Below, one piece after another: positions 3,247 through 59,822 of a stretch of DNA of 64,000 bases. The translations under genes and the position numbers were made by a program. The stretch covers positions 358,918,001 to 358,982,000 of the forward strand of contig OZ024740.1 in NCBI GenBank assembly GCA_964016885.1, written 5' to 3'. How positions within the stretch are numbered: position 1 is the first letter of the stretch; each line of letters begins with the position of its first letter. The notes under the pieces are model-generated. The model did not search any database. It saw nothing but the letters and a program-made list of their open reading frames with translations, and was not told the origin of the DNA. The stretch is from Eledone cirrhosa (Eukaryota).

Positions 3247-4097
3247 GTTGGTGCTGAAAATTTAAAAGAAGAGGAAAAGAAATCACTCACCTCTTCGTCT
3301 CCTGGGGACCAGGCTGCACGATTTCCATGGGGGTGTTGGAGGGGTTGTCTGGGTGGGTGGTGGTTTCCGGCGGGGTGGGGACGGAGATATTTTGTGGGAA
3401 GGGGGTGTCTGGTGGGATGGGTTGTCTGGGGTGGGGGAGACATTTGAGAAGGACGCGGTTAAGTGGTTTCACGCAGGAATCCCCCACAACCTTTTCAAAT
3501 GTTTCTTTTAGGGACCTATAAGTTTGTATAGGGATCCTAATCAGTTTTAGGTTCAGTTTTTTGTTATTTTTATTAGAGTGGGCGAAAGTTTTCCCTTCGG
3601 TTTTCACCGAAGGGTTGTTCGTGATGGTCTCCATTAGTGTTTTGTTTTCAGTGTTTATGTATGTGTAAGTGTAATTTTCTTCTGTTTGTTTTTGTCTGTA
3701 GTTCCTGTGTGTGCTTTCGTTTTGTTGTAGGTATTTTGTTTTCAGGAGGTGGGGGTTCTGTTTGTGATGTTTTTATTGTTTATGTTGATGGTTGTATGTT
3801 TGTGGTAGTGTTGCTGGGTTTTTGTTTTTGTGGTGTCTTTTTTTTCTTTCGAACGATGGGGTTCTCCCTCGTCTTCACTGGGTGATGACGAGATAGCCTC
3901 ATCTGTTGTATCGTCTGTGTGATTGGGGAGCTGTTGTGTCTGTATGTGATTTTGCAGTGGTTTTAGGTGGTGTGGGGTTGGGTGGGACTGTGTTTGTTGT
4001 GGTTATTATTGTGTGTTGGTGTTGTTGTTGTTGTGGTGGTGGTGGTTGTGTTATTTTGATGGGTGTCGGCAGAAGAGTCTTTTTTTTTACTTTATGG

Positions 4098-4218
4098 TCC
4101 GAGTTCAAATCCCGCCGAGGTTAACTTTGCCTTTTATCCTTACGGGATCGATAAAAGGAAGTACCAGTAATACACTGGTATAATTGCTGGCCTTGTGCCA
4201 AAAGAAGAAACAATTATT
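4098..4218 (+). mobile_element. Nin-domain tRNA-derived SINE, 5'-truncated
   Basis: B box gagttcaaatcc followed by ggttaactttgccttttatccttacgggatcgataaaa; matches other copies in window. Confidence 0.8.
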
Positions 4219-4874
4219 AGAGGGGAAGGCTGCTATGGTAGTAATCATAGAGTCACCTTTCCATTTTCTTCTTCTGGCAAGGAAATTGTTTTCTTTTCCG
4301 TCATTCCTTCAGAATTGGCGAAAGTTGTGGTTGTAGTAGAAGATATAATGTCTTTTTTTTTACGATCTCCTTTCCATCCAAGAGCGTTCTCTGTTTAACG
4401 AAGGCAGCATTTCTGACATTTTAAAATTTTCACAAATAGTTTTTATTTTTATTTATTTTTAGATTGGAAAATAAATGTTTGCCCCTAAGAGCTGAAATTT
4501 AGAAAAAAAACGCCCTGGAGTTTCAGGTTGTTGGTTTATCTTTAAAATAATGTAAAAAAATTTGCAAAAATCAGAATTTTTACCAGAAAATTTAAACAAA
4601 AACTCACCAGCGAATCATCACACGTCTACCTACGTGGATGATAGATAGATTTGTAGATAGATATATTTCTTTATTTGCCACAAGGGCGCACATGAAAAGA
4701 GGACAATACAAAGACACATGCCGGTGATTTTACATATAATCGTGTAAAAATATTATTAAAACAAGTAAATTTAACAATCGAAATCCACAATAGGAGGGAG
4801 GCGTTAGAACAACCCTCAACTCCAGGAGCGTGTTGTGCAAGTGTTCTTTTCTTCCTTTTGCTCTCATCTTCAAC

Positions 4875-7800: not shown

Positions 7801-8127
7801 CACTAGTCTGAAGGCTCCACCTCCAATACTGTTCACGTCTAGGACTACCAGTCTACCCTCCGGGTCCAAGTGTATATGCTGTATTTCGAGGTCCAGTTTT
7901 TTCCGAAACACAACAACCACTCCCCCTCCACCTCCTGACTGACAGGGAGATGCGTAGATCTCAAAGTCATTAAAGATGGGGATTAGTTGCTGCTTGTTGT
8001 GGATCCTGGACTCGGTGATGGCTATCACATCCATTCCGTATGACTTAAGGTCGTTTAAAAGTTGGCCCTGTCTCCGGGGCATCCCTAGGCCACGCACATT
8101 CACACTTCCGACTCGTAAATTAGCCAT
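4875..8127 (-). pseudogene. ORF2 (APE-RT) of Tx1-like copy 2, disrupted
   Basis: MANLRVGSVNVRGL, VIAITES, SYLDRFF, YSDHK, YWKLN, LDQSKAFDRVDH, HAIVHC. Confidence 0.92.
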
Positions 8128-8169
8128 GTTGGTGGAGAAGAGTTGGCGAAAAGGACGAAAAGATGCACT

Positions 8170-9593
8170 TACCTTTTCGTTTCCTGTCCTGGAGATTGGG
8201 TTGTTCAATCTCCATTTCGTTGTTGTTGGGGGTGTTGGGTGGGGTGGGGAAACGTTTCAATAGGACCGGTTTAAGGGTTTTTGGAAGGGATTTCCGACGT
8301 CCCGCGAAAATAGTTCCTTTAGTTTCTGGTAGGTTTCCATCGAAACCCTTATCAGTTTTAGGTGTGGTGCAGCGTCTGACTTGACAAAGGTTTTCCCCTC
8401 AGTTTATACTTTGGGGTCTTGGGAGATGACCCCCATCAGGTTTTTGTTGTTTGTGTTAATGTATGTGTATTGTTGTTTGTTTTTTTGTTGTGTTGTTTTG
8501 GTTCGTTGTTGGGCATTTGTGTTTGGGGTAGTGTTGGTGTTTGTTTTGCTGGGGAGGGGGGTGATTGTGGTGGTGTTTGTGTTGTTGTTTGTGTTGGTGG
8601 TTGTATGTTTGTGTTGGTGATTGGCGTTTTTGTGACTTTGCGGTATCTCTTTTTTTTCCGAGGCTCTCCTTCATCTTCACTTGGGGGTAGAGAAGTAGTC
8701 TCGTCTGACGATGAATAGTCATCAGGGGCGTGTGGGAGGGGTATGTTGTGTGGGGATGGTGTGTTTGTGTGTTTGATTGTGGTAGTGTTGGATGGAGTGG
8801 GATGGGGTGGGTCGGTGTTTTTCAGGGGAATTGTTTGTGTTTTCTCTGTTGTTTGTGGTTGAGCAGTTGTTTGTTTTTGTGTGTTTGCTTGTTTTGTGTG
8901 TTGCTTTTGTTGTGGTTTTGGAGTTGGTGTTGGTAAAAGTACTTTTTTTTTTGGGGGGGGGGGGGGTATTTGTTCGTAAGCGGGGACAGGATGCCTTTAA
9001 ATGCGATGTGCTTGCGCATTTAAAACAATGTCTTCTGCCGAAATGTGTATATAGTTTGTATTGTCTAGTGGCACTCTTTCTGGTATCTTGGAAATTCTGT
9101 CCGGTTTCATTTGGACCAAAATTTCTAAGCTTGTGCCGTTCCAGGTGTTTCTTGTGGATTTTTGAATCGACAGTATTGTGTCTTCATCTTCCTCCAAGAA
9201 CCCTGCCAGAATCCACCAGATATTAATGTTGGGTGCTATGTTGGAAATGTTTATTTTTTGTGTCCCTTTTCCCATGTATGTAGGGAAAAAGGTGTGTGTG
9301 GCAGAGGTAACCGGGGTTACTGAGTATTTTTTCGCAAAGGACTCACTTTTGAAGAGTACCGAAATGCTTCCACATAGTTTAGCTCTTTGTATGAAGTGTA
9401 TGTGCGGCATTGCCTCTTTCAAGACGATTTTAATTTCGCCTTGAGTAAGGAAAGCCGGGTTTTTTGGTGTGTTCGAAATCGTGCAAAAAATCACAGTCCT
9501 TCGCATTGTGTCGGCTTTGATTTGTGGCGGAGAGGTGATTTTAAATCCCCCTTTTTCCTCGAAGGTAACATATTTTTTTCCTTCATTGATCAT
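8170..9593 (-). pseudogene. ORF1 of Tx1-like copy 2, frameshifted
   Basis: 198-aa N-terminal ORF (8997-9593) resembles ORF1 of copy 3 (PTYMG vs PSYCG, WILAG vs WLMAA, GTSLEILVQ vs GSGMELLIQ), then low-complexity tail. Confidence 0.75.
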
Positions 9594-10959
9594 TTCTTTT
9601 GCATTGAAAATATCGATATTTGTAAAACTTCCTTTGCTTATTGTGGCAAAATATTTTTTATGGTTGCTGTTGCTGTTGTTGTCATTGTTGTCGTTGTTGT
9701 TGTTGTTATTGTTGTTTTTGCAAAATTAATATTCAACGAGTCACTTTGGCCTTAAAAAATAAACAGAAAAGCTATGACCACCTTTCACTTATTTAGTCGA
9801 GCCAGCATTTTCCTCGCACTTTTGCGACCTGACCTTTGGTAGAACTCCACTGCATCAGTTGTAGGTGGTGATAGTATTTGTTCTGAGTACGTCGCTGTTT
9901 AAACAGGCCTAAAATCAAAGGGATTCTACCTGGGTCCTTCTGTAATTTTATATATCTGCGATAACACTGCTCAATGAGTTCGTCTATTTTAAGTAAGGTG
10001 ACATTTGAGAATGATATAACTGTTAGTAGATAGAGTGAACTAGTAAAGATTCAATCATTGGCTCGTGTGAAACCCTTAATACGGTAGTGTTTTTTAGCTA
10101 GATAATCATTGGATCCTTTGAAGCATTTTAAAACTGTGTTGGCTTCGAACACAAATTTTCGCTAGTAAAGTTATACAAACCAATAACTCTTTACATTTTA
10201 GCCATGCACAATATAGAAATGCTACCAATCGATTATTATTAAATGTAAATTATTTCATCGTCTTTTAGGCTATTAACCCATTCACGCAAATCAGCACAAC
10301 ATGCTAACTAGACATTTTTCCACACGTTAATGCACATAACCCGAAGAACGATATTATAATTATGTTATGAACGTTTCCTTGCAAGGAAATTAAAAATAAA
10401 TTTAATGAAGCTATAATATTAGTTTTATTTGTTTTTTATCACTTCTATAAATGATCTGGAATTATTGTAATAGTTTCTTGCATTTTCATATTGTTTACGA
10501 TATTGCTTTCATTTCATCATGCTCCGGTCTTTAGAATATTAATCGATGTTTTTAATAATAGTCTATTTTATGTAATTAAAATGCGGGTGTGTAAATGACA
10601 CGTTTGAAAATATTTACTGAACTTACATTTTAACATTAATTGAATAACATTCCAATAAAGTACCAGTAATGTACTGAGTAATTGTGGCCTTGTGCCAAAA
10701 GTAGAAACAATTAATTGAATAACATTTCAAACAATTTTTTATATAAATTCTGGAACGCCTCCATAAATGATTGAAAAATCCATGTACCCATAAATATACC
10801 TTGGAATTGTTTGGCAAACTTTACACAAATGAATCAGGTCTAATTCATTGTTTTTTCTAAACAGAGTTGAAAAATTTAATAGAATAGTGCGATCGGAGTA
10901 ATAATTCAACCAACAAGCTTCTTTGAAAAGTAATGAAATGTGAAACTCAGAAGAACAGT

Positions 10960-34819: not shown

Positions 34820-34936
34820 ATGGAGGCGGTAAAAACCAGTTAGACCATTACTCACCAGAGCACTTGATACTTGGTGTAGTAGAATGGGTAATATATATAT
34901 AGTGGTAGAATGGGTAATATATATATATATCTATAT

Positions 34937-35589
34937 ACTATTAATAATGAGTTCAAAACTCAGGCAGTCCTTTACAATGAAATATCTCAAAGAAAGAAGT
35001 ATTTCTGAGCCGTGTAATACAAGTTAATATAAATTAACTTGTATTACACGGCTCAGAAATACTTCTTTCTTTGAGCTATTTCATTGTAAAGGACTGCCTG
35101 AGTTTTGAACTCATTATTAATAGTATCACTGCTCCTTTTTGTAGAGCTAATTGTAGCCTCATATAAACGGCTGTTATTTCTAGCAGCACGAGTATGCGGC
35201 AGCTAGACACTAGATAACCATGTGTGTAAAACCATGTGCCTTAAACAGTCTTTTTAAATATTTTGAAGTGAAACATACCAATTTTTTTAGTGCTTGCTGA
35301 GGAGATCTAAATGCGGCATTCTTTCACTTTTTCATTTTTCGAAACATATTTGGATTTTAAGGTTTAAACCTGTCTACGGAACAGGTTTGATTTTGAAATT
35401 TAAATTTGTCCAAGCACCACGGCCATTTGCCAATATGCTTTGTTTTTATTGATTTATTATTTTAAATCGAGACAGGCAAACTGTATTATTATAATTAGTA
35501 TTTTTCAATCTAGCTAACTTAGTCATTTACAATTCAAACACAGATATGTTGGTATTTGTGTTTATCAAATATATTAATTCATATTAACT

Positions 35590-35594
<5 letters not shown>
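34937..35594 (+). mobile_element. 550-nt hammerhead unit with ~90-bp inverted 5' arm, in (TA)n
   Basis: Near-perfect hairpin 34937-35125; attaacttgtat at 35033 and again at 35583. Confidence 0.82.
35290..35417 (+). ncRNA. Type I hammerhead with long stem III
   Basis: gtgcttg-CTGAGGA-ga..aaatg..cattt..tc-GAAA-[~28-bp imperfect hairpin incl. aaacctgt/acaggttt]-GTC-caagcac. Confidence 0.82.
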
Positions 35595-35624
<30 letters not shown>

Positions 35625-35632
35625 GAATGGGT

Positions 35633-35666
<34 letters not shown>

Positions 35667-35674
35667 AAATTATA

Positions 35675-35705
<31 letters not shown>

Positions 35706-35713
<8 letters not shown>

Positions 35714-37801
35714 GACGTAAAATAAGAAAATATTTTTTTAAAAAAATTTTAAAAAAAATTTTTTTCTTACTTAAATTTTCACTCCAACTAATTAGTTTCT
35801 GCAATGGGATAAAGACAGTTATGTAATCCAACTGTCGAGAATTCATTGCGTCATCAGGAAGTCTATTCTCAGTTAAGTCTCCAGGCAATGCGCGGACACT
35901 GGCGGCTCATATAAAAATAATAATAATTCGGTAGATCGAACAGCTTGCGAGGACTGAATTCTATGTACCGAAATTCTCACTGCTTCAAGTCAAATGGCCG
36001 ATTCTAAAGAATCAATCACGTGACACAGAGGCTAGTTAGAAGGAATGGGATGGTAAGATGACTGACGCCTACTAACACCCCAAAAAAAAATTTTTTTAGA
36101 AGTGGTTTTGACAAGTTTGCTCGACAAATCAGTGATTTGGAGATAAATATAGATAATTTAATATATCAACTAACATAAGCGCACAGATGCACGCCCATGC
36201 CAGCAAATACACAGGTTATGTCATAGTACCTAGGTGGTTCAATGCAGGAGAATGCAGAACAATAATATAAAGGACGTAAAATAAGAAAATATTTTTTTAA
36301 AAAAATTTTAAAAAAAATTTTTTTCTTACTTAAATTTTCACTCCAACTAATTAGTTTCTGCAATGGGATAAAGACAGTTATGTAATCCAACTGTCGAGAA
36401 TTCATTGCGTCATCAGGAAGTCTATTCTCAGTTAAGTCTCCAGGCAATGCGCGGACACTGGCGGCTCATATAAAAATAATAATAATTCGGTAGATCGAAC
36501 AGCTTGCGAGGACTGAATTCTATGTACCGAAATTCTCACTGCTTCAAGTCAAATGGCCGATTCTAAAGAATCAATCACGTGACACAGAGGCTAGTTAGAA
36601 GGAATGGGATGGTAAGATGACTGACGCCTACTAACACCCCAAAAAAAAAAAAAATTTTTTTAGAAGTGGTTTTGACAAGTTTGCTCGACAAATCAGTGAT
36701 TTGGAGATAAATATAGATAATTTAATATATCAACTAACATAAGCGCACAGATGCACGCCCATGCCAGCAAATACACAGGTTATGTCATAGTACCTAGGTG
36801 GTTCAATGCAGGAGAATGCAGAACAATAATATAAAGGACGTAAAATAAGAAAATATTTTTTTAAAAAAATTTTAAAAAAAATTTTTTTCTTACTTAAATT
36901 TTCACTCCAACTAATTAGTTTCTGCAATGGGATAAAGACAGTTATGTAATCCAACTGTCGAGAATTCATTGCGTCATCAGGAAGTCTATTCTCAGTTAAG
37001 TCTCCAGGCAATGCGCGGACACTGGCGGCTCATATAAAAATAATAATAATTCGGTAGATCGAACAGCTTGCGAGGACTGAATTCTATGTACCGAAATTCT
37101 CACTGCTTCAAGTCAAATGGCCGATTCTAAAGAATCAATCACGTGACACAGAGGCTAGTTAGAAGGAATGGGATGGTAAGATGACTGACGCCTACTAACA
37201 CCCCAAAAAAAAATTTTTTTAGAAGTGGTTTTGACAAGTTTGCTCGACAAATCAGTGATTTGGAGATAAATATAGATAATTTAATATATCAACTAACATA
37301 AGCGCACAGATGCACGCCCATGCCAGCAAATACACAGGTTATGTCATAGTACCTAGGTGGTTCAATGCAGGAGAATGCAGAACAATAATATAAAGGACGT
37401 AAAATAAGAAAATATTTTTTTAAAAAAATTTTAAAAAAAATTTTTTTCTTACTTAAATTTTCACTCCAACTAATTAGTTTCTGCAATGGGATAAAGACAG
37501 TTATGTAATCCAACTGTCGAGAATTCATTGCGTCATCAGGAAGTCTATTCTCAGTTAAGTCTCCAGGCAATGCGCGGACACTGGCGGCTCATATAAAAAT
37601 AATAATAATTCGGTAGATCGAACAGCTTGCGAGGACTGAATTCTATGTACCGAAATTCTCACTGCTTCAAGTCAAATGGCCGATTCTAAAGAATCAATCA
37701 CGTGACACAGAGGCTAGTTAGAAGGAATGGGATGGTAAGATGACTGACGCCTACTAACACCCCAAAAAAAAAAAAAAAATTTTTTTAGAAGTGGTTTTGA
37801 C
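35706..37801 (-). repeat. Left (inverted) arm of ~562-bp tandem array, ~3.7 units; hammerheads at 35781-35862, 36340-36421, 36904-36985, 37463-37544
   Basis: Reverse complement of right-arm unit; visible differences only in A/T homopolymer lengths. Confidence 0.97.
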
Positions 37802-40800
37802 TTAACTGAGAATAGACTTCCTGATGACGCAATGAATTCTCGACAGTTGGATTACATAACTGTCTTTATCCCATTGCAGAAACTAATTAGTTGGAGTGAA
37901 AATTTAAGTAAGAAAAAAATTTTTTTTAAAATTTTTTTAAAAAAATATTTTCTTATTTTACGTCCTTTATATTATTGTTCTGCATTCTCCTGCATTGAAC
38001 CACCTAGGTACTATGACATAACCTGTGTATTTGCTGGCATGGGCGTGCATCTGTGCGCTTATGTTAGTTGATATATTAAATTATCTATATTTATCTCCAA
38101 ATCACTGATTTGTCGAGCAAACTTGTCAAAACCACTTCTAAAAAAATTTTTTTTTTTGGGGTGTTAGTAGGCGTCAGTCATCTTACCATCCCATTCCTTC
38201 TAACTAGCCTCTGTGTCACGTGATTGATTCTTTAGAATCGGCCATTTGACTTGAAGCAGTGAGAATTTCGGTACATAGAATTCAGTCCTCGCAAGCTGTT
38301 CGATCTACCGAATTATTATTATTTTTATATGAGCCGCCAGTGTCCGCGCATTGCCTGGAGACTTAACTGAGAATAGACTTCCTGATGACGCAATGAATTC
38401 TCGACAGTTGGATTACATAACTGTCTTTATCCCATTGCAGAAACTAATTAGTTGGAGTGAAAATTTAAGTAAGAAAAAAATTTTTTTTAAAATTTTTTTT
38501 AAAAAAATATTTTCTTATTTTACGTCCTTTATATTATTGTTCTGCATTCTCCTGCATTGAACCACCTAGGTACTATGACATAACCTGTGTATTTGCTGGC
38601 ATGGGCGTGCATCTGTGCGCTTATGTTAGTTGATATATTAAATTATCTATATTTATCTCCAAATCACTGATTTGTCGAGCAAACTTGTCAAAACCACTTC
38701 TAAAAAAATTTTTTTTTTTTTTGGGGTGTTAGTAGGCGTCAGTCATCTTACCATCCCATTCCTTCTAACTAGCCTCTGTGTCACGTGATTGATTCTTTAG
38801 AATCGGCCATTTGACTTGAAGCAGTGAGAATTTCGGTACATAGAATTCAGTCCTCGCAAGCTGTTCGATCTACCGAATTATTATTATTTTTATATGAGCC
38901 GCCAGTGTCCGCGCATTGCCTGGAGACTTAACTGAGAATAGACTTCCTGATGACGCAATGAATTCTCGACAGTTGGATTACATAACTGTCTTTATCCCAT
39001 TGCAGAAACTAATTAGTTGGAGTGAAAATTTAAGTAAGAAAAAAATTTTTTTTAAAATTTTTTTAAAAAAATATTTTCTTATTTTACGTCCTTTATATTA
39101 TTGTTCTGCATTCTCCTGCATTGAACCACCTAGGTACTATGACATAACCTGTGTATTTGCTGGCATGGGCGTGCATCTGTGCGCTTATGTTAGTTGATAT
39201 ATTAAATTATCTATATTTATCTCCAAATCACTGATTTGTCGAGCAAACTTGTCAAAACCACTTCTAAAAAAATTTTTTTTTTTTGGGGTGTTAGTAGGCG
39301 TCAGTCATCTTACCATCCCATTCCTTCTAACTAGCCTCTGTGTCACGTGATTGATTCTTTAGAATCGGCCATTTGACTTGAAGCAGTGAGAATTTCGGTA
39401 CATAGAATTCAGTCCTCGCAAGCTGTTCGATCTACCGAATTATTATTATTTTTATATGAGCCGCCAGTGTCCGCGCATTGCCTGGAGACTTAACTGAGAA
39501 TAGACTTCCTGATGACGCAATGAATTCTCGACAGTTGGATTACATAACTGTCTTTATCCCATTGCAGAAACTAATTAGTTGGAGTGAAAATTTAAGTAAG
39601 AAAAAAATTTTTTTTAAAATTTTTTTAAAAAAATATTTTCTTATTTTACGTCCTTTATATTATTGTTCTGCATTCTCCTGCATTGAACCACCTAGGTACT
39701 ATGACATAACCTGTGTATTTGCTGGCATGGGCGTGCATCTGTGCGCTTATGTTAGTTGATATATTAAATTATCTATATTTATCTCCAAATCACTGATTTG
39801 TCGAGCAAACTTGTCAAAACCACTTCTAAAAAAATTTTTTTTTTTGGGGTGTTAGTAGGCGTCAGTCATCTTACCATCCCATTCCTTCTAACTAGCCTCT
39901 GTGTCACGTGATTGATTCTTTAGAATCGGCCATTTGACTTGAAGCAGTGAGAATTTCGGTACATAGAATTCAGTCCTCGCAAGCTGTTCGATCTACCGAA
40001 TTATTATTATTTTTATATGAGCCGCCAGTGTCCGCGCATTGCCTGGAGACTTAACTGAGAATAGACTTCCTGATGACGCAATGAATTCTCGACAGTTGGA
40101 TTACATAACTGTCTTTATCCCATTGCAGAAACTAATTAGTTGGAGTGAAAATTTAAGTAAGAAAAAAATTTTTTTTAAAATTTTTTTAAAAAAATATTTT
40201 CTTATTTTACGTCCTTTATATTATTGTTCTGCATTCTCCTGCATTGAACCACCTAGGTACTATGACATAACCTGTGTATTTGCTGGCATGGGCGTGCATC
40301 TGTGCGCTTATGTTAGTTGATATATTAAATTATCTATATTTATCTCCAAATCACTGATTTGTCGAGCAAACTTGTCAAAACCACTTCTAAAAAAATTTTT
40401 TTTTTTTTTGGGGTGTTAGTAGGCGTCAGTCATCTTACCATCCCATTCCTTCTAACTAGCCTCTGTGTCACGTGATTGATTCTTTAGAATCGGCCATTTG
40501 ACTTGAAGCAGTGAGAATTTCGGTACATAGAATTCAGTCCTCGCAAGCTGTTCGATCTACCGAATTATTATTATTTTTATATGAGCCGCCAGTGTCCGCG
40601 CATTGCCTGGAGACTTAACTGAGAATAGACTTCCTGATGACGCAATGAATTCTCGACAGTTGGATTACATAACTGTCTTTATCCCATTGCAGAAACTAAT
40701 TAGTTGGAGTGAAAATTTAAGTAAGAAAAAAATTTTTTTTAAAATTTTTTTAAAAAAATATTTTCTTATTTTACGTCCTTTATATTATTGTTCTGCATTC

Positions 40801-41464
40801 TCCTGCATTGAACCACCTAGGTACTATGACATAACCTGTGTATTTGCTGGCATGGGCGTGCATCTGTGCGCTTATGTTAGTTGATATATTAAATTATCTA
40901 TATTTATCTCCAAATCACTGATTTGTCGAGCAAACTTGTCAAAACCACTTCTAAAAAAATTTTTTTTTTTTTTTTTTGGGGTGTTAGTAGGCGTCAGTCA
41001 TCTTACCATCCCATTCCTTCTAACTAGCCTCTGTGTCACGTGATTGATTCTTTAGAATCGGCCATTTGACTTGAAGCAGTGAGAATTTCGGTACATAGAA
41101 TTCAGTCCTCGCAAGCTGTTCGATCTACCGAATTATTATTATTTTTATATGAGCCGCCAGTGTCCGCGCATTGCCTGGAGACTTAACTGAGAATAGACTT
41201 CCTGATGACGCAATGAATTCTCGACAGTTGGATTACATAACTGTCTTTATCCCATTGCAGAAACTAATTAGTTGGAGTGAAAATTTAAGTAAGAAAAAAA
41301 TTTTTTTTAAAATTTTTTTAAAAAAATATTTTCTTATTTTACGTCCTTTATATTATTGTTCTGCATTCTCCTGCATTGAACCACCTAGGTACTATGACAT
41401 AACCTGTGTATTTGCTGGCATGGGCGTGCATCTGTGCGCTTATGTTAGTTGATATATTAAATTA

Positions 41465-41471
<7 letters not shown>
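37799..41471 (+). repeat. Right arm of ~562-bp tandem array, ~6.5 units; hammerheads start at 37816, 38377, 38942, 39504, 40065, 40629, 41197
   Basis: Periods 561-568 bp measured between CTGATGA cores. Confidence 0.97.
37816..37897 (+). ncRNA. Type I hammerhead ribozyme, representative of 11 identical copies
   Basis: acttc-CTGATGA-c(gcaatg..gacagtt..aactgtc..cattgc)a-GAAA-ctaattag-TT-ggagt; predicted cut after 37892 (GUU). Confidence 0.88.
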
Positions 41472-41511
<40 letters not shown>

Positions 41512-43152: not shown

Positions 43153-43267
43153 CAGTATTAACAATTGTTTCATTAATCAGGTGAGTCTAAAGGCCGCTGA
43201 TCGCTAGAAATTACGCCACTCGACTTTAAATACAGTGTGCGTCTCTGATCAAATCATCAGAATACTA
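43153..43267 (-). ncRNA. Type I hammerhead with large stem II insertion
   Basis: tagtatt-CTGATGA-t(ttgatcag...ctgattaa)t-GAAA(a)-caattg-TT-aatactg; one extra A in core. Confidence 0.68.
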
Positions 43268-46795: not shown

Positions 46796-49032
46796 GATGG
46801 TGCGCAGATGGTGTGCAGGAGTATGGGATTAAAAATATAACATCCCGAAACTGACAACCATGTTCAATGACTGCTTGATGTCAGGTGAGGTACCAGAGTG
46901 GTTGATAAAAGGTACCACAGTTCTGGTAATGAAAGACCGAATCAAGGGTAATGATGTTACCAACTATAGACCTATCACATGTCTGTCCGTAATGTGGAAA
47001 CTGTTGACAAGCTTTATATCTGAGGAAATCTACCATCACCTCCACACAAACAACTTGTTACCAGACGAACAGAAAGGATGCCGAAAGAAGTCCCGTGGTA
47101 CAAAGGACCAGTTACTTATTGATAAGATGGTAATGAGGAATTGCAAGAGGAGACACACTGGTCTTGCCATGGGATGGATAGACTACAAAAAGGCATTTGA
47201 CATGGTGCCTCATTCTTGGATCACCAAAAGCCTAGAGATCTTCAAGGCGGCAGATAACATCAGACAGTTGTTGGGCAAAAGTATGAAGTCCTGGAAAACA
47301 GAGTTAAGATCAGCTGGAGAATCCTTGGGAGGCGTGAAGATAAAGAGAGGTATCTTTCAGGGAGATAGTCTGTCCCCTCTGTTGTTTGTCCTTGCCCTGA
47401 TGCCCCTGACCATTATACTGCGAAAAGTGAGAGCAGGATACAAGTTGGGAAAGGGAGAGCTTACCATCAATCACCTCCTCTTCATGGACGATCTTAAGCT
47501 CTTCGGGAAGAGTGAGAAGGAGTTGGATGTGCTTGTTGAGACTGTCCGTATTTTCAGCAATGATATATGTATGCAATTTGGTATTAGTAAGTGTGGAGTC
47601 CTTGTGATGAAGAGGGGTAAATTGAGCAGAAGCAACGGAATCCAGGTACCAACAGGTGAGATGATAAAGGAAATTGACACTGAAGAAGGATACAAGTATT
47701 TGGGTGTTCTGGAGGCTGATGACATCAAGAACCAAAAATGAAGGAATTGATAAGATCTGAATACATTCGGAGAGTAAGGAGCGTATTAAAGTCACATCTG
47801 AACAGTAGGAATGTCATAAGTGCAGTAAATTCCCGAGCTGTGTCTATTATTAGGTACAGTGCGGGAATTCTGAGATGGAATGTTGCTGAACAAAAAGAAA
47901 TGGATAGGAAGCTATTGACTATCTACATGTTCCACAAGAGGAGTGATGTCGATAGACTCTACTTAAGGAGATCTGAAGGTGGAAGAGGTCTTATCAGCAT
48001 AGAGGACTGTGTTCAGATGGAGAAAAACAACCTACACAAATACGTGACTGATAGTAAGGAGCCAATGCTCAGAATTGTACTGAAGGAGAGGACAATAGAC
48101 CAGGGGATGTCCAAGGAGGAAATAACAACAAGGAGAAAGAGCAGCCTTCATGAAAAATCCCTTCATAGTACCTTCTTTGAGAAAACTGAATTCAGAGATC
48201 CACAGACATGGAACTGGTTGAAAAGAGGAGACCTTAAAAAGGCTACAGAAGGAATGCTAATGGCTGCGCAAGAGCAGGCTATCAAAACGAAGTGGTTGAA
48301 ACACCATATTTACAAGGAGGAGGCTAGCCCACTGTGCAGGATCTGTGGAGAGAGAGAGGAGACTGAGGTTCACATTGTATCCGAGTGTAAAGACCTAGCC
48401 CAGACTCACTATAAGGGCTGGAGACATGATGTGATGGGCAGGATGATCCACTGGCACCTATGCAAAGTAAACAATTTACCACATTCTGAGAAGTGGTATG
48501 AGCATAAGCCAGAGTCGGTGATAGAAAACGATCAGGTGAAGGTGCTGTGGGATTTTAGGATACAGACGGACAAGAAACTGGAACACAATAGACCTGACCT
48601 GGTGGTTTTGGACAAGGAAAAAAGATCGTGCCTGATTGTGGATGTGGCCTGCCCATTCGATACGAGAGTGCAAGAGAAGGAGAGAGTGAAAATTCACCGA
48701 TACCAGGACTTAAAGTGGGAGGTAAAAAGGATTTGGCACTGCCATGAAGTCAAAGTGGTCCCGCTTGTCATAGGCGCACTAGGTACTATCTCAAAAAGTT
48801 TCCAGGGATGGTTAAAGAAAATTGGCCCCGCCACGCTTTTTGGAACGCTTCAAAAGGCATGCTTGCTGGGAACAGCAAGAACCCTCCGATACGTCCTGAA
48901 TATCTGAGGCTGCAGGTAGTGGCTTGATATTCATTTCAACAAACTTTCCATTTAACTAACATCAATGACTGAGACTCAAAGAACAATAATAATAATAATA
49001 ATAGTAGTTATAATAATAATAATAATAATAAT
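46796..49032 (+). mobile_element. R4/Dong-like RLE retrotransposon, 5'-truncated, young, (TAA)n tail
   Basis: RT-zinc finger-RLE coding region followed by short 3' UTR and (taa)n. Confidence 0.92.
46860..48907 (+). pseudogene. RT + CCHC finger + restriction-like endonuclease, one evident frameshift at ~47738
   Basis: [71 protein letters not shown]. Confidence 0.93.
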
Positions 49033-49284: not shown

Positions 49285-52272
49285 TTACAGACACATACTC
49301 AGAGTAGGCCCATTCACTCGGGCCTTTCTTGCCTCTCTCACCCATCTTTCAACAAAATGCTGGGAAGAGAGCACTTCCCTTTCTACCCTGATTTTCCTTT
49401 TCAAATGAAATTTGAAAAAGTCAATCAGGGCATCACCGAAGGGGTAAGTGCTCGTCTTCAGCCCTTTCAAACGTGTCCACCATACTATCTCTTTCGCCAT
49501 GGTCACCAGACTGATAAAAACTGCCTGCCCTTCCCTGCTAAAGGAAGAGGGCGGGGCAATCCTCACGATGGACTCAGATGATAGCCGGATCCGTCCTACA
49601 CGCGACAGCAGGTGTTCGACATAAACCCACAAGTCAGCAATTTTCGGACACTGGACGAGTGTGTGCAGGACGGTTTCGTCACCCTGCGCGCATCTCGGAC
49701 ATGCCCGGCTGACGGCACATCCATGCCTGTAAAGTTTATCTCGAACAGGCAAGGCTCCTCGGTAGCACTGCCAGGCCAGAGATTTCTGGAAGTTGTCCAT
49801 AGGCCTCGGCGTCGCTCTTCCCCTCCACTAATCCTCTATAGAACGCTGAGGTGGAGTTTCCACCGATCACATTGCCCGATTGGTCGAGGGCTGTGAGCGC
49901 CTGAAGACATTCCAGTCTCCAGGCACTCCCTCTCGGTCTTCGCTTTACCCAGGATTGCAGCTCCATCTAGGAAACGAGCTGGGGAAATACGTGTTTAGCA
50001 AACGGCGACCACACCTGATCACCGTCGAGGAAGAGGTGGAGATGTCGTAGCCTGAGCGCGTGTCTGCGCATCATCAGCCACGGCATGCCCAGCCCTCCAC
50101 GTAGCGGGTGTTGACAACAGATGGACCGCCTGACTATCGGAGCGCGTCCCTTCCACAAAAAGCGAAAGAGCAAACGTTCCAGAGCAGTCAGGCGGGGCTT
50201 AGGACAAGGTACGACGGTCAGGCGGTAGCAGCTGACAGACGCGATGTACGCGTTGGCCACCTCCGCTCGACGTTTCAGGGATAGCTTCCTCTCCGCCCAT
50301 TTCTGGGTGAGAGAAGCCACCCTGCTCGTCACCTCGTCCCAGTTTTTGTCCGTCTGGATGTCCGGACCGAACCAGACCCCTAGCAATTTAAACGGTCCGT
50401 CCGTCCAACGTCCGACGACGCTGTTGGACGGCATAGACCTGCCTCTCCAGGTGCCGAGCTGCAGGCCCACTGACTTTTCCTGGTTGATCATTGCTCCTGT
50501 CACCGCTTCGTATTCTCTTAGTTTGTGCCGATCGCCTCGATGTGTTTGGCGTTCGACACGACTACGGTGACATCGTCCGCATATGCTGACACGGATCTTC
50601 CGCATCCTAGTTCGCGCGGGACGCCCCTCAACGTCTCCAGTTTGTGCAGTAATGGCTCGAGAGTCAATACGTACAAGAGGGACGAGAGGGGACATCCTTG
50701 GCGGACCGAGCGCATGATGTTGAACGGTTCCGAAAGGTGACCGTTCACTCTCACCACAGAGCAAATGTCGCTGTGCATGGCAGCGATCCAGCCTCTGAAG
50801 ACGGGCCCAAAGCCAGCCGCCCTCAGGACTGCCGCTAGGTAACGATGGTCGACCCTATCGAAAGCTTTCGACTGATCTAAATTGATCAAAGATCAACCCG
50901 TGCCAGGTTCTCTAGATACCTTCTCTACGATGTATCGCATGAGGTGGAGGTTGTCGTGGATGGATCTGTCGGGAATAGCGCATGTCTGCGCCTCTCCCAC
51001 CAGACCACCAACGACAAGCGCCAACCTCTTTGCTAGCACCTTGGCCAAAATCTTGAACTCTGTGTTTAGCAGAGTTATGGGTTTGAAATTATCTACATAC
51101 ATTTGCCCGGAATCGAGTAGCATGCGCCCGTCGTGGTCCACCAAAGACCGGATCTTTCCATGACGCGCCTCCGCCACTCGGGCCTATTGAACGGCTTTCG
51201 TCCCCTCGTGTCTGAGAGCACGCACCCTAGCTCTGACAACGCAGCCTTCGTGCTTTGCATTGAATAATTGGTCAAGGGCCAATTTCGCCGCAAGTACGTC
51301 GGTCGCGATGCCTTTGCTAAGCGCCTCGTCTAATTTTCTAACTAGTTCTCCCTCTGCTCTATTTTTCTCTATTGCTAAAGCCTTACTAAACCTAATGGAC
51401 TCTATTCTAATCGCTCTTTTCAGAGCAAACCACCACTTGTTGTTGACGTTGGCCCCCGTCAACGCCCGCTTAACTAGTTCGCTAATCGGGTCTCTGTAGG
51501 CCTTGCGCGCTGGTAAGGACGCGTTTAGCTTCCAGTAGCCGGGTCCTCGTCTATGAAGCCTATCTAAGTCAAGCAGACAGATCACCGATTTTTGGTCCGT
51601 GTAGCTGACTATCTTGAATTGTGGACAGCCTATGCTAGACCTATCTATTTCCCTACAAAATACTCTATCTAGATATGATCTGTATGACCCTATGCGATTT
51701 GTTCAAGTCCACATTTGTACATTCGGGAAATGCAATCATTACCTGTCAGACAGTTCAAAACGCCTGAGCAGGTTGGTGAGGCTCTTGCACCCTCCTCCCC
51801 TATCCGCTAATCCCACACAGTACCAGCGTGCATCTAAGATACCGTTCCAGTCGCCCACTAACACTAAAGAACGGGACGTTCCAAGAAAGGTCTCCAGACG
51901 CCGGAAGAAATCAGGCCGCCCTGCTCCTGTCGGGGCATATACGGCCACTTGCCTGAAAGCTTGCCCGTCTCCGCTCGTCACGTCTAGCACCACCAACTTA
52001 CCTTCTGGGTCCGGGAAGATGGCCCGTATGGCGAGATCCAAACCTCTCCGAAAAAGCACAGCAACTCCTCCCCCCGATCCCGGACGGCTGGGAGATGCGT
52101 ACACATCGTAGCCGCCGAAGATCGGTGCGAAGGCCCGTGCTTCGGAGATTCTGGTCCCGCTGATGGCCACTACATCTATATTTAGTAACCTGAGGTCGTT
52201 GAGCAGGTGGCCCTGCTTCCATGACGACCCCAAGCCACGCGCATTTATGCTGCCTATTCTGAGTGAGGTCAT
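49285..52272 (-). pseudogene. ORF2 (APE-RT-zinc finger) of Tx1-like copy 3, frameshifted with RT N-terminal deletion
   Basis: GSINARGL, VGDWNGILD, YWKLN, VRQGCPLS, AYADD, CPRCAQGDETVLHTLVQC; KSPGLDG block absent near 51100. Confidence 0.92.
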
Positions 52273-52306
52273 GTTGAAATGGAGTGGAAAAGATGGGAAA
52301 GACCAC

Positions 52307-53857
52307 TTACCTTACTTCTCGTAGAGGAAGTATGGTGTGTCCATCCTTTTCACTGCTTGTGGCCTCCTCCGGAAGGATGTCTTTATAAATCCTCCTGGAG
52401 AGTGTTTGTCGGAAGTCTCCGATGTCTTTGGGGAATTTTTGTTTTAGTGTCGTGTACGTTTTCTGTGTGATGTGAGTGATTTGTATGTGTGAATGTGGTG
52501 TGAAATTTTTAGTTGTTGTGTAGTCTTTTTCTGTGATGCTGGTGTTGTGTTGCATGTAGTGTAATAATTGGTTTTTGTTCAAATTTAATGCTGTGTAGTG
52601 TGTATCGTTTTGGTTGTTTTGTTTTGTTTGCGTTTGTTGTGGGTTTGTTTCTGTTACGCTTTTTGGTGATTTTTGTGGTGTTGGTGATGGTGGTGTTGGG
52701 GTTAATGATGGTAATGGTGTTGGTGTTTGTGGTGATGGGGTTGGTGATGCTGGTGTGGATGGTGGCATATCTGTCTTAACTTTCTTGTTTGCTAATTTAT
52801 TTGTTTCCCTCTGTATTTTGTTTTTGGAGAGGGAGGGAAGAGAATTTTTTCTTTTTTGGTTTCTTTTTTTCTTTTTTCCTGATACCGTTTCCCACTCCTC
52901 GTCGTCACAATCTGTCTCCAGTTGCGATAAGCCGGGGAGTGGAAAATCCTCCAGAGGCGTTGGTTTTGGTTGTGGCGTGGTGGATGGTGTAGGCGCTGGT
53001 GCTATTTCTGGGGCGTTGGGTGGTGGTGGTGTTGGTTTTGCTACTGTTGCTGGGGTTGTTGCTGTTACAGTTGCTTCTGTTGTTGCTGCTACAGTTGTTG
53101 CTGCCATTTCTGTTGCTGGTGATGTTGATGGTTGAGTCACTGGGGTGGGTAAGAGAGGTGGTCTCAACCTTTTAGCCTGAGGGCAGAAAGCCCTTAGGTG
53201 GTTTCCTTCACCACAAACGACACACCTTGGTCTTCTGCCCTCGACGATTACGGTGAGGTGGCTGCCGTCAGTGAGATCTATTACCTCTGGGAACTCCTCA
53301 ATGCTTTTATGGTCCGCTTGGATCAGGAGCTCCATCCCAGATCCTGACCTGTTCTCCTGCTTTTCTTTTGCTATTTCTATTATTTTGGTGTTGACCTCGA
53401 TGCCGGCGAGGACGGCAGCCATTAGCCAGGGAATTTCGATGGCCGGTGGAACGTGGGTCACCCTGATCTTCACAAGTCTCTGGCCACAATAGCTTGGGAT
53501 GAGTGTGAAGTCGTCACTTCTTAATGGGACCATGGAGTGTTCTCTGGCCTCCTGTGGTGTTTCAAAGAACACGTACACGGTTCCATACTTCTGCCCACGT
53601 CTGACGTGGGTTTTCTTTGCCCACACATGTCCCAGAGCTTTTTGGATTTGGGACTCAGATGCCCGTTTCACTCGGCGCGATTTTATATTTATTGTCCGAT
53701 AAGACACGGTGCATAGGCGACGTTGCTCAATTTTATTAGGTGGGGGGGTGAGGCTGACCCTGTACCCATCTTTCTTTACCATTTCTTTGGCTTCGTCTAA
53801 TTCTTCCTGAGTTACCTGGATCGCTTCGCACGTTTTTGCTACTCTGGCAAAACTCAA
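52307..53857 (-). CDS. ORF1 gag-like nucleic-acid-binding protein (open 516 codons; true start uncertain)
   Basis: CX2CX4HX4C knuckle CVVCGEGNHLRAFC; RRM-like N-terminus; EWETVSGKKKKR; Pro/Thr-rich tail. Confidence 0.8.
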   Translation of the reverse strand: MSFARVAKTCEAIQVTQEELDEAKEMVKKDGYRVSLTPPPNKIEQRRLCTVSYRTINIKSRRVKRASESQIQKALGHVWAKKTHVRRGQKYGTVYVFFETPQEAREHSMVPLRSDDFTLIPSYCGQRLVKIRVTHVPPAIEIPWLMAAVLAGIEVNTKIIEIAKEKQENRSGSGMELLIQADHKSIEEFPEVIDLTDGSHLTVIVEGRRPRCVVCGEGNHLRAFCPQAKRLRPPLLPTPVTQPSTSPATEMAATTVAATTEATVTATTPATVAKPTPPPPNAPEIAPAPTPSTTPQPKPTPLEDFPLPGLSQLETDCDDEEWETVSGKKKKRNQKRKNSLPSLSKNKIQRETNKLANKKVKTDMPPSTPASPTPSPQTPTPLPSLTPTPPSPTPQKSPKSVTETNPQQTQTKQNNQNDTHYTALNLNKNQLLHYMQHNTSITEKDYTTTKNFTPHSHIQITHITQKTYTTLKQKFPKDIGDFRQTLSRRIYKDILPEEATSSEKDGHTILPLREVR

Positions 53858-54446
53858 GGTAGTTTTCTTAATTTCATTGTTGCTGTTGTTATTATCGTTA
53901 TTTTTGCTATTGTTAATTTTAGTTTCAGTTGTTGTGTTGTGGTGGTGGCGTCAGTGGTGTTCGGTGTGGAAGAGTTCATTTTGGTTGAATTCATTTCGAT
54001 ATCATGAGTTAATTTATTTTTTTCTTTTCTTTCTGTTGTCGCTGTGGTGGTGGTGGGGGTGGTGGTTGTCGCGGTGGCGGCTCTAACACCTGCAGTCATT
54101 GGTAATAGCGGGAAATGAACGTCTGCCTGAGACAAATTTAAAATATTGCTACTGCTTACAATTCCAGTGTTGGCAAACGTAGCAATATTTACAATGGTGG
54201 TGTCGGTGTGAGGTGTTGGATTGTGAGGAAGGAGTGAATCTAAGAAAAAATTTTGTTTGATAATTATAAAAAGTTTAAATTTCGGCTCAAGGCCCCAATA
54301 TTTTTGAGTGTCCTTTTCAGAAATCAATGTATGTCCACTTATATACACTTAACAATAAAAAGTTTCCATAAATGGCAATTTTAAACAACTGAAAATAACA
54401 AACCTTTGCGGAGCTCACGATGATACGATGTATTACGTAGGTCGCC

Positions 54447-55469: not shown

Positions 55470-58400
55470 ATTTAAAAAAAACAACAAAAAGAAAACCCCG
55501 TGACCAAGAAATACCGGGATGGCGGCCGGCGGGGAATAGCCGTGTCTCTGGGGGAGAACGACTCCTCTAGTCTTGGTTGACACTCGTTCTAGAAGTGGTA
55601 ACACGAAATGATTACCCCTTGGCGGATAAGGATAAAACGCGACAAAATAAAGTAAATGTCTAATGATAAAGTCTCATACCGGATCGGCCGTCACCCGGGT
55701 AAAAAAGGGCCGCGTCCCTCAGAGAGGAACCAGACTGGGGTCGAAAAATCAGCTAATGGTTCAAACCTTCCCATCACTTCAGAGCTGGATACCTCCCATA
55801 ACAGGAATACTCCTACTGTTGGCCCTCCATGCTCACCACCAAGAAATCCAAAGAAAAAGAGAGAAAAATGGTCAAGGGAAGATAATAAAGAAGTCCTTGA
55901 GGCTTTCTACACTGCCATGTACTGCCCATCAAATACATCGAATACAGAACAGACATATATCAACTGGAAAAAGAAACATCCCGAAAACAGAGGCTATATT
56001 GACAGTAACAAACTAGCCAATATACGAAGAAATATTGTAAGAAAAAAGTTACTAACTGATATAGAAATTGATCAGATCAAGCTATTAGCACAAAGTCAGA
56101 GAAGGGAAAATGAAACATGTGTCAGTGAAAACGAGGTAAACTGTAACACTTCGAACCCCAGAGTTGGGGCGGAATCACTGGCAACAGAACAAATTAAAGA
56201 AAGGATCGAAAAAGTGGAGGGAGTGCATGCTCAGGATGAAACTCCAAATGAAAATAATGAGATCGTAAATGATAAAGAAATGAATGAGAATGAACTTGCC
56301 AACTTGAAGGATGAAATTATGATCGAATGGATGAAAATGAAAGAATCTGACATGGGGCAACGAGACACTCTCCCTAAGATCCAGAACTCCAAACAGAACC
56401 AAAAGATAATACACAAGATTAACATAATTCTCAAAAACATTATCATCACAAACAAACTAAACATTACTGATTTAAATCATCTCTATTATGCATCGGCTAA
56501 AGTCACCACTCACCTACGTGGAGTGAAGATGAAAAACAAAGGAATTCCCACAAAAAATCTACTTGGCAAGAGAACATCAATCGCCAAATAAACCTTCTCC
56601 GATCTGACATAGAAATTTTAACAAACTATAAAGTAGGTGAACATGTTAAACAAACTAAACTTAGAAAATTGAAAAGAAAATGCAGTATAAAATCAACAAG
56701 CGACATAGACATGCTGATAGAAATAATCAAGCAAAAAGTGTCGGCCAAAGCTGCTCGTATAAGGCGCTTTGAAAAACGATCTAGATTCTATAAGGACAAT
56801 AATATGTTCAAAAACAACCAAAGAAACTTCTACAGAAAAATTGGTAAGTCAACAATAACTGCTAAATCAATACCACCCAAGGAGGAAGTGCAAGAATTCT
56901 GGGAAAAGATCTGGGCCGAAGAAAAAATTCATAATATACATGCCCATGGATAGACAGACAAATGAAAGATACAGCTCACTTGAGGAACAAGTATGGGAAA
57001 ATATAACAGTTGAACAGTTGCGTTTGGCTCTAAGAAAAACCAGCAAATGGAAATCCCCAGGAAAAGACAAAATACAACATTTTTGGATAAATGCCTTCAC
57101 AGAGTCTCATGAGCTGTTAGCCCAACTTTACAATGATATAGTTAAGGAACCAGAAAAGATACCATCATGGCTAGTTAACGGCATTACATTCCTACTTCCG
57201 AAGAATGATGAGACAAAAAATCCCTAAAATTACAGACCGATAACTTGTTTGACCACAATGTATAAAGTTTTAACATCAGTCCTAACTGAATATACATATG
57301 ACCACCTGATAACAAATGACCTATTTCCCATTGAGCAGAAAGGGTGTAAACGAGGCTCATATGGCTGTAAGGATCAGCTTTTGGTTAACAAAATAATACT
57401 GGAAGATTGTCATAATAGACACAAAAATTTATCAATTGTTTGGATAGATTATAAAAAAGCATTCGATAGTTTGCCACACAGTTAGATTGAAAAATCTTTA
57501 GAGATTTTCAAAATATCTCCCGTTGTCAGGAGGTTTTTGTCATTCAGTATGAGGACATGGAAAACGACACTCCTTTTGAATAGTGAAACAAAATCACTGG
57601 AAGCTGGAGAAGTTAATATTAATTGTGGAATTTTTCAGGGTGACTCTTTATTACCGCTTTTATTCTGCATCGCACTTATACCATTAAGTAAAATGCTCAA
57701 TGAAACAAAGCATGGATATAAAGTATATGACAAAACCATTAATCACTTGTTCTACATGGATGACCTGAAACTATTTTCAAAAAATGATGAACAATTGCAA
57801 GGGCTATTATCCACTGTGGAGCAGTTCGGTGGTGATATTAAAATGGAGTTTGGACTAGATAAATGCGCCAAAGCAACGTTCACCAGAGGAAAGCTGCTGA
57901 AGATTTCAGACATTAATCTTGATCGGGGGAATGTGATAAGAGAACCTGATCAAGAGGAAACTTACAAATATCTAGGTGTTTGTGAAGGAGACGGAATCAA
58001 GCACTCGACAATGAGGGAAAGGATAAGGAAGGAATGTTACCGCAGAGTATGAACAATCTTAAGAACGGAATTGAATGCAAGGAATAGGATCGATGCCATA
58101 AACACGCTTGCCATACCAGTAGTAACCTACAGTTACAATGTCATCAACTGGTCAAGCACAGAGATCCGTAGGCTCGATACAAAAATTCGAAAATTCTTAA
58201 CCATGCAGAGAATGCATCACCCTAAGGCAGATATAGATAGAATATATCTCCCTAGGAAAGAAGGAGGACGTGGGTTAATCCAGTTAGACATTGCGTTGAA
58301 AACTGCAACAATTGGATTATCTACATATCTAAGGGAATCACATGATTGGATGATCAAACTCGTTTTGAAACACGAAAGCATCAAAAGATCATATTCCATT

Positions 58401-59444
58401 ACAAAAGATGCACAAAGATACAGTAATGGACTACAAATTTCAGAAGTCCCATTTACTGCTGAAATGGAAAACACAGAAAAAGCAAAGCAGGTAAAAGTAA
58501 CTGCAAAGAAAGAACTGCTACAGAAACTGGCTAAGAAATGGCAAGAAAAGCCTCTGTATGGAAAATACCCAGAGTGAGCTAACAATCCTGATGTTGACAA
58601 AACTTTAACCCATCAGTGGTTGGCATCCTCTGGACTGAAATCGGAGACTGAAGGACTGATTATATCAGCACAAGATCAGTGTCTGCCAACAAAAACTTAC
58701 CAAGCCAACATAATAAAAAATGGATGCAGCCCATTATGCCGTGTATGCAAAAAACAACCAGACCATTGACCATATAATTTCAATGTGCAGTCCTATAGCT
58801 TCAACCGAATACCTAAACAGGCATGACAGAGCTGCACAATACATACATTGGATAATGTGTAAGCATTTTGACCTGCCCCATCAAAAGAATTGGTGGGAGC
58901 ATCAACCACCTCCCATACTTGAAAAAGATCACATCTCAAACTTGTGGAACTTTAGCATCCAAACAGACCGAAAAATAGATGCAAATAGACCTGATATAAT
59001 ATTGAAGGACTTTAAAAAGAGGGTATGCCTGCTAATTGATATGTCTGTTCCAATAGCCAAGAATGTATCTATAAAAACATTTGAAAAATTGAGCAAGTAT
59101 AAGGACCTGGAGATAGATATTGGAAAAATGTGGAAATTGAGAACTAAAACAATACCAGTGGTTGTAGGCGCTCTGGGAATGATACCTAAGGGGTCTAATG
59201 ATTACTTATCGCAGATCCCAGGAAACCCGCGTATAGGAGAAATACAAAAGATAGTACTAATGGGAACTGCCCATATACTAAGGAAGATTCTGTCAATATA
59301 AGTACATCACAAGTCTAAACACTAAAGATGCATGTGTGAGTATGTATGTTCTTCCTTGAACATGGCGGACCTTGTTGTCTCTTGAGTTCACTGGTTGTGA
59401 CTTGGTGATAACTCGTATGAACATAAAGCAAGATAAATGCAACT

Positions 59445-59491
<47 letters not shown>
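55470..59491 (+). mobile_element. Full-length R4/Dong-like RLE retrotransposon, inactivated by stops/frameshifts
   Basis: Single long ORF remnant 55656-59301 ([37 protein letters not shown]); (taa)n tail 59447-59491. Confidence 0.93.
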
Positions 59492-59493
<2 letters not shown>

Positions 59494-59495
<2 letters not shown>

Positions 59496-59822
59496 CTAAA
59501 ACAATACCAGTGGTTGTAGGCGCTCTGGGAATGATACCTAAGGGGTCTAACGACTACTTATCGCAAATCCCAGGAAACCCGCGTATAGGAGAAATACAAA
59601 AGATAGTACTAATGGGAACTGCCCATATACTAAGGAAGATCCTGTCAATATAAGTACATCACAAGTCTAAACACTAAAGATGCATGTGTGAATATGTATG
59701 TTCTTTCTTGAACATGGCGGACCTTGTTGTCTCTTGAGGTCACTGGTTGTGACTTGGTGATAACTCGTATGAACATAAAGCAAGATAAATGCAAATAATA
59801 ATAATAATAGTAATAATAATAA
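59494..59822 (+). mobile_element. Second 3'-end copy of same R4/Dong family
   Basis: Repeats 59142-59440 with about six substitutions and its own (taa)n tail. Confidence 0.92.

Follow-up and report, generated by a model that had tools for sequence, protein, structure and literature searches.

Non-long terminal repeat (non-LTR) retrozymes that give rise to circular RNAs have been described in coral, mussel and axolotl, and Penelope-like elements (PLEs) were proposed as their mobilisers (PMC7229834), a life-cycle model repeated in a review (PMC7761336). The enzyme that moves animal retrozymes has so far been argued from their co-occurrence with PLEs and from similarity to PLE terminal repeats (pLTRs), as in a recent preprint (bioRxiv 10.64898/2026.07.22.740005). 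In PLE insertions themselves, a copy truncated at its 5' end lies inverted, and a tail of 30-40 bp is often confined to one end; the mechanism behind such tandem and inverted insertions is called undefined (PMC8557442). The PAc protein of Poseidon cleaves and extends both strands, is predicted to form a dimer, and starts at two internal sites, the interval between them being the tail (PMC11167929). Here we analyse a 64,000-nt stretch of the Eledone cirrhosa genome (assembly GCA_964016885.1, contig OZ024740.1, positions 358,918,001-358,982,000; the window), in which a cluster of hammerhead-bearing units lies at 35706-41475, together with the dispersed family to which the units belong. On balance, we consider it probable that the locus is a very young two-armed retrozyme insertion, made by a PLE reverse transcriptase (RT)/endonuclease that primed both (TA)n ends on one RNA, predicted to be a circle of ~560 nt.

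A motif scan placed 11 hammerheads in the cluster, of which the plus strand carries seven and the minus strand four (Table 1). A first-pass annotation, made from the letters alone, had described 11 hammerheads in near-identical, non-coding units of 559-568 bp within (TA)n, and these features hold: nine units are complete from cut to cut (559-568 nt), no open reading frame (ORF) of ≥150 aa lies in the array, and (TA)n tracts flank it on both sides. The same annotation had taken the units for a single head-to-tail array, which has to be revised: the left arm runs on the minus strand and the right arm on the plus strand, and because they meet 5'-to-5' on opposite strands, the locus is an inverted two-armed insertion rather than a tandem array. 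The nine monomers differ solely in the lengths of two homopolymer runs, with no substitution at 497 unmasked positions, and the insertion is therefore very young; target-site duplications are unreadable in (TA)n. Of the recent rolling-circle cDNA that had been proposed, the recency and a single template source are supported, and the single cDNA gives way to two divergent arms.

The motif at 37816-37897 has the three helices and the conserved CUGANGA, GAAA and NUH elements of a type I hammerhead. Stem I pairs 37816-37820 with 37893-37897 (5 bp), the core CUGAUGA occupies 37821-37827 and GAAA 37879-37882, stem II pairs 37829-37834 with 37872-37877 (6 bp) and is extended by a second helix, and stem III is a 12-nt palindrome (37881-37892) that ends in a GUU cleavage triplet. 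The predicted structure agrees with the stems, the GUU triplet and the cut after 37892 reported at first pass. At the base of stem II, a C.A mismatch (37828/37878) replaces the Watson-Crick pair and is invariant in 11/11 diverse copies; a U.U mismatch is reported at this position in HHR_Amex2, an active axolotl hammerhead (PMC7229834). Rfam, suggested earlier as a check, returned no match at the gathering threshold across the whole window, and none of its hammerhead families matched up to E=10 in 801 nt. Across 11 divergent copies, the core is invariant, 98% of stem cells are paired, and stems I and II covary (15 cells with double changes; 0/500 shuffles as high), two of the five measures in this test not exceeding the shuffles. 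In folding predictions, the lowest-energy fold of a single motif is inactive, with a trapped core (active-fold probability 1e-4), and two molecules join through the palindrome with a swapped stem I (-49.2 vs 2 x -19.8 kcal/mol). Judged from these models, cleavage as a dimer is likely, and the predicted two-copy fold matches the dimer model put forward for hammerheads with a palindromic helix III (PMC4209133).

The exact 29-nt hammerhead pattern occurs 4,189 times in the 3.0-Gb genome and never in a reversed control, so the motif is not due to chance; with 59 loci accounting for the first 100 matches, extrapolation suggests roughly 2,500 loci in all. Two sister families add 2,194 and 1,420 pattern matches (3,614), one sister unit being 69% identical to the family unit, and a fourth stem II variant turned up in the scan. 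Metagenome contigs gave 0 matches to the hammerhead pattern. The fetched loci hold 167 cut-to-cut monomers of 522-594 nt, head-to-tail and each with a hammerhead. The reference monomer is predicted to be stable (z = -4.25; below 100/100 shuffles in energy), the circular fold of the unit is predicted to be branched and 64% paired, and 14/106 of its consensus pairs show double changes among 13 monomers. With head-to-tail type I hammerhead units, no attached ORF, dispersed copies, a stable fold and a GC content (35%) below 50%, the element is likely a dispersed, non-coding, hammerhead repeat family, that is, a non-LTR retrozyme, and its sequence features thus favour the identity first suggested for it. 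The element does not fit a viroid-like replicating RNA, for which a rod-like circle with ribozymes in both polarities would be expected: its predicted fold is branched, and the hammerhead is present in one unit polarity only.

The family resembles the metazoan non-LTR retrozymes in that its tandem units are non-coding, low in GC and equipped with a single type I hammerhead, that it has thousands of copies and a stable predicted fold, and that it coexists with PLEs. Its unit (~500-590 nt) is longer than the 170-400-nt circles of PMC7229834 and lies within the 51-972 bp given in bioRxiv 10.64898/2026.07.22.740005, and an earlier impression that it was unusually long can be dropped. It differs in its long stem II with the C.A base mismatch and in arms that lie back-to-back and have their 3' ends fixed at two points next to (TA)n; circles have been shown in those systems and are predicted here, and the word 'inverted' is absent from the main text of PMC7229834. 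The satellite-2 hammerhead repeats of newt and axolotl likewise have tandem units, a weak helix III and better cleavage as dimers, whereas they form long arrays of 330-350-nt units rather than short dispersed two-armed insertions.

We examined the insertion ends at 99 loci, comprising 40 best-scoring (young) and 59 consecutive ones, and found the 3' ends fixed at unit position ~80 (site A) or ~194-202 (site B), adjoining (TA)n. The two sites lie 118 nt apart, both read UAUAU, and both are predicted to be unpaired; in the circular fold, their unpaired values are higher than those of the other two of the four TATAT sites in a unit (0.82 and 0.75 vs 0.09 and 0.48). Automatic calling of the 59 two-armed loci gave 52 A+B, 1 A+A and 6 unclassed, so that 52/53 classed pairs use one of each site (p = 1e-14 vs independent choice); by eye, 4/6 unclassed loci are also A+B and 2 are left unassigned. 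One-armed loci end at A 20 times, at B 17 times and elsewhere 3 times (two compound loci counted in), and at least four of them carry a short second arm of the other end type. Sister families keep both sites, and there the rule held in 3/4 distinct two-armed loci and, in a second set, in 6/6 loci with both ends readable. Two fixed 3' ends of this kind are the Penelope 'tail' signature. The first-pass annotation had suggested a search for dispersed, circularly permuted copies; the copies are dispersed, and they are permuted at their 5' ends only. These 5' ends scatter near uniformly round the unit (n = 156; chi-square p = 0.07, Rayleigh p = 0.02) without enrichment at the predicted cut (1/156 within 3 nt vs 1.9 expected). 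At the 59 arm junctions, 35 overlap by 1-16 nt, a figure to which alignment contributes in part for the short overlaps, 13 are blunt, and 11 have inserted bases. Both arms exceed one unit in 14/24 young loci, the mean arm length is ~530 nt in the consecutive sample, and arm lengths are uncorrelated within either locus set.

Older site-B ends often run into (CT)n before (TA)n (L073, L078, L083, L093, L094, L099, L226, L229), perhaps because the primer slipped or because the run expanded later. At some junctions, unit sequence is present in short repeated copies or a small additional segment occurs (L032:5268-5332, L109, L040), which suggests repeated annealing during end joining.

The retrozyme insertions share with PLEs the inverted 5'-truncated arm, the extension at one end only, the two internal start sites and the AT-rich/(TA)n targets, as well as a hammerhead with a short helix I and a palindromic helix III (PMC4209133). 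They differ in having no ORF, in an offset of 118 nt rather than 30-40 bp, in the several whole units per arm and, compared with PAc, in start sites homologous to the target (UAUAU vs (TA)n). The genome itself contains young PLE families that have long open frames and numerous near-identical copies. For two of these families, we took divergent pairs from match lists; the pairs run out into (TA)n, and in 11/11 and 3/3 cases a short end is combined with a long one, at offsets of 44-60 nt. The retrozyme thus bears the signature of the PLEs in its own genome, with its offset of 118 nt. We regard PLE-type priming from both DNA ends as highly probable.

Twin priming is familiar from L1, in which the internal site where the second primer anneals varies and the two arms copy parts of the RNA that do not overlap. 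The likeness lies in the use of two primers, which leaves the 5' part inverted and joined to a part in sense orientation; the difference is that both start sites are fixed here and both arms repeatedly cover the same sequence.

The young PLEs have features worth recording in their own right. One locus (L182:1046-4696, minus strand) holds a young 1,217-aa frame with an Asn-rich insert; its 3' region includes a minimal hammerhead-like motif and can end at any of three points, a short and a long end always being combined in its two-armed insertions. The protein has no Pfam or PDB match; its similarity to an RT + GIY-YIG protein (E 3e-16) makes it a putative PLE, and the Cys linker, read by eye, would make it 'Neptune-like'. 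A second family with a 784-aa protein (L129-L140, L175-L181) has microsatellite-like TA/TG in its 3' untranslated region (UTR), copied into each insertion; in one young family, such a microsatellite-like UTR obscures the true 3' ends. Two autonomous PLEs (G000:C2:200827553-200837344 and G000:C2:359515902-359534021) consist of one inverted arm and 3 or 5 tandem copies spaced 3.1 and ~3.9 kb apart, a layout like that of the retrozyme arms, and such tandem copies may point to circular or multimeric templates for PLEs themselves.

In the sequence of events that we propose, multimeric transcripts would self-cleave at GUU through paired hammerheads, and the monomers would be ligated into circles. 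The enzyme would then cut (TA)n, each 3' end pairing with one of the unpaired UAUAU sites A and B, and both cDNAs would run round the template with strand displacement until a random stop. Joining of the two cDNA ends, with 0-16 nt of microhomology, would leave the footprint seen at the loci, namely back-to-back arms with one outer end at A and one at B. A more specific version, in which a PLE dimer grips one ribozyme-made circle by its two UAUAU sites, holds both (TA)n ends and runs two rolling circles, is offered tentatively, as a possibility that we rate below even chances.

Variation within and among loci bears on the template. Two common alleles segregate among the 40 young loci, and the arms are concordant in 19/19 and 22/22 cases, the two sites not being independent. 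Divergence is 0.055% within vs 0.31% between young loci, and 1.1% within consecutive loci vs between-locus medians of 5-11%. Fifteen variants are private to one of the 99 loci and present in all units there, a count that sparse sampling of older subfamilies may inflate; 10 of them are fixed across both arms (6 loci; up to 8/8 units), and 111 single-unit variants remain unhomogenised. Taken together, the locus-private fixed variants and the unhomogenised ones require a step that amplifies one monomer. Cut-site junctions are contiguous in 306/306 cases (loci partly chosen on this) and 5' ends do not lie at the cut, which favours a closed or uncleaved template over end-to-end jumps. We consider a circular template likely.

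A PLE might instead have primed at A and B on an uncleaved linear multimer or an oligomeric circle, the hammerhead being unneeded for mobility. This would likewise account for the contiguous junctions and for the lack of 5' ends at the cut, and non-autonomous Chlamys elements, of a mostly hammerhead-less clade, form multicopy head-to-tail insertions (PMC8557442). In its favour are also the uncleaved RNA that PAc mainly used in vitro (PMC11167929) and L056, where a minority variant occurs in the same register in both arms (1 shared vs 20 unshared). Variants fixed in every unit of both arms, however, call for a monomer-to-multimer step, and T-run lengths are out of register between arms (10/33 equal vs 11.8 after shuffling). 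Moreover, with a mean arm of only ~530 nt, linear copying would shrink arrays, and the hammerhead is conserved with covariation across families that are only 69% alike. We consider priming on such a multimer rather unlikely, although more probable than the other alternatives.

Several observations weigh against the circle-templated, PLE-driven insertion that we prefer. The L056 variant does so because a monomer circle does not predict it, and it favours a multimeric template; at L048, two adjacent units share a variant, and both arms could also derive from two RNAs of one expressed source locus. PAc needed no hammerhead cleavage, uncleaved RNA was its main substrate in vitro, and its initiation sites have no homology to the target (PMC11167929). 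The 118-nt offset exceeds the published 30-40-bp tails, and no PLE with a related terminal repeat was found among three young PLE or PLE-like families and one older one. Cleavage may be slow in view of the C.A mismatch, the GUU triplet and the misfolding of the monomer, and 8/9 Xenopus dimers were reported as uncleaved (bioRxiv 10.64898/2026.07.22.740005). The element is known here from genomic sequence, and cleavage and circles are inferred from it.

The unit could also be the pLTR of an ORF-bearing Penelope, with the loci as its truncated or locally amplified remnants. The PLE-type hammerhead features (PMC4209133), the PLE insertion signature and the retrozyme-pLTR homology in Xenopus (bioRxiv 10.64898/2026.07.22.740005) speak for this, and a rare parent, under ~3% of loci, is compatible with the data. 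Yet no ORF with RT and GIY-YIG domains was found at the 99 loci or in the window array, in no case does a unit lead into an ORF at a constant position, and no such extension is common to the 5' flanks of 38 one-armed loci, so the concern raised at first pass, that the unit might be only such a terminal repeat, finds no support at these loci. Among the matches listed, the unit shows only short TA-rich similarity to the ends of four PLE/PLE-like families, and a short-stem-II hammerhead pattern has 39 matches, nearly all like deletion derivatives of the clan. A pLTR origin is accordingly improbable.

Folding back of one cDNA, which copies itself into an inverted arm without a second priming, would account for arms that share a haplotype and for the 8/59 junctions with 5' ends ≤5 nt apart on the unit (p = 5e-5). 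It predicts no one-of-each outer ends, yet these make up nearly all classed pairs, and most junctions join distant positions (median 115 nt, no different from shuffled pairs, p = 0.18); the A+B rule has already largely refuted such snap-back, which we hold to be very improbable. An assembly artefact (fold-back chimera) or a satellite amplified by unequal exchange is scarcely credible: the locus is read from assembled sequence only and L048 fits a rare adjacent-unit exchange, whereas the same architecture recurs at 59/99 loci that differ in their flanks, junctions and private variants, the two arms do not mirror each other, and the 111 single-unit variants remain unhomogenised.

Retrozymes, inverted PLE copies and two-site initiation by PLEs have each been published; we did not find the combined footprint in the literature searched, which was mostly open-access and excluded repeat databases, and which yielded no account either of the family itself or of retrozyme arms that lie back-to-back and pair their start sites. 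The words 'hammerhead' and 'ribozyme' are absent from the main text of a 2026 repeat annotation of Octopus vulgaris. The value of the family lies in a quantitative footprint that ties a retrozyme to the PLE mechanism, since the two-start-site signature of PLEs is here borne by a non-coding unit, and it bears on how PLEs form tandem and inverted insertions whose tail sits at one end, a process described as undefined. As a short, repeated unit, the element preserves in thousands of copies what we read as the priming of both DNA ends at different fixed sites of one source RNA. If true, a dual rolling-circle rule would explain the tandem, inverted and 'tail' structures of PLEs, to which it would extend because young PLE copies in this genome have multi-unit arms and one-of-each ends, and double-ended gene insertion from a circular template would have a ready-made 560-nt substrate in the retrozyme. 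A 560-nt RNA, together with the two young PLE families of this genome, makes twin priming, circle vs linear template and the identity of the partner directly testable.

Table 1 Features of the two-armed insertion (window coordinates).
Feature	Position	Strand	Source
Left (TA)n target tract	35592-35710	.	TRF + sequence
Left arm, 3.73 units, 4 hammerheads; 3' end at start site A, 5' end at unit position 233	35706-37801	-	
Start site A (unit 76-80, TATAT), merging into TA tract; outer end of left arm	35706-35710	-	
Hammerhead, predicted cut after 35786	35781-35862	-	
Hammerhead, predicted cut after 36345	36340-36421	-	
Hammerhead, predicted cut after 36909	36904-36985	-	
Hammerhead, predicted cut after 37468	37463-37544	-	
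5'-to-5' arm junction, 3-nt microhomology, unit positions 233 and 468	37799-37801	.	
Right arm, 6.53 units, 7 hammerheads; 3' end at start site B	37799-41475	+	
Type I hammerhead, predicted cut after 37892	37816-37897	+	
Reference monomer, 561 nt cut to cut	37893-38453	+	
Internal copy of start site A, predicted unpaired (0.82)	37968-37972	+	
Internal copy of start site B, predicted unpaired (0.75)	38086-38090	+	
Hammerhead, predicted cut after 38453	38377-38458	+	
Hammerhead, predicted cut after 39018	38942-39023	+	
Hammerhead, predicted cut after 39580	39504-39585	+	
Hammerhead, predicted cut after 40141	40065-40146	+	
Hammerhead, predicted cut after 40705	40629-40710	+	
Hammerhead, predicted cut after 41273	41197-41278	+	
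Start site B (unit 194-198, TATAT), merging into TA tract; outer end of right arm	41467-41471	+	
Right (TA)n target tract	41468-41508	.	TRF + sequence

A transcript across 35706-41471 in either direction would hold a ~2 kb inverted repeat, as long double-stranded RNA, followed by sense units, and could attract editing or small-RNA silencing; a signature of A-to-I editing was not seen among the 15 template-level variants (3 A>G vs 1 T>C).

Elsewhere in the window, a 94-bp near-perfect inverted repeat with a 4-nt spacer lies beside a TA tract at 34935-35126 and is possibly a very short two-armed insertion or a miniature inverted-repeat transposable element. An unrelated type I hammerhead motif with a long stem II, a palindromic stem III and a GUU site occurs on the minus strand at 43165-43266, with a (TA)n tract ~70 nt downstream of it; L121:456 holds a similar motif, and the window copy is possibly the 3' end of another PLE-type element. 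Hammerhead-like motifs of other repeat families lie at 19042 (+), 31956 (+) and 61243 (-), and most recur in other fetched loci, some as opposite-strand pairs. Broken non-LTR retrotransposon frames, presumably of L1/Tx1-like and restriction-like-endonuclease types judging from their motifs, occupy 211-9725, 46833-48907, 49285-53950 and 55656-59822, and one of them ends in (TAA)n with a 352-bp duplication.

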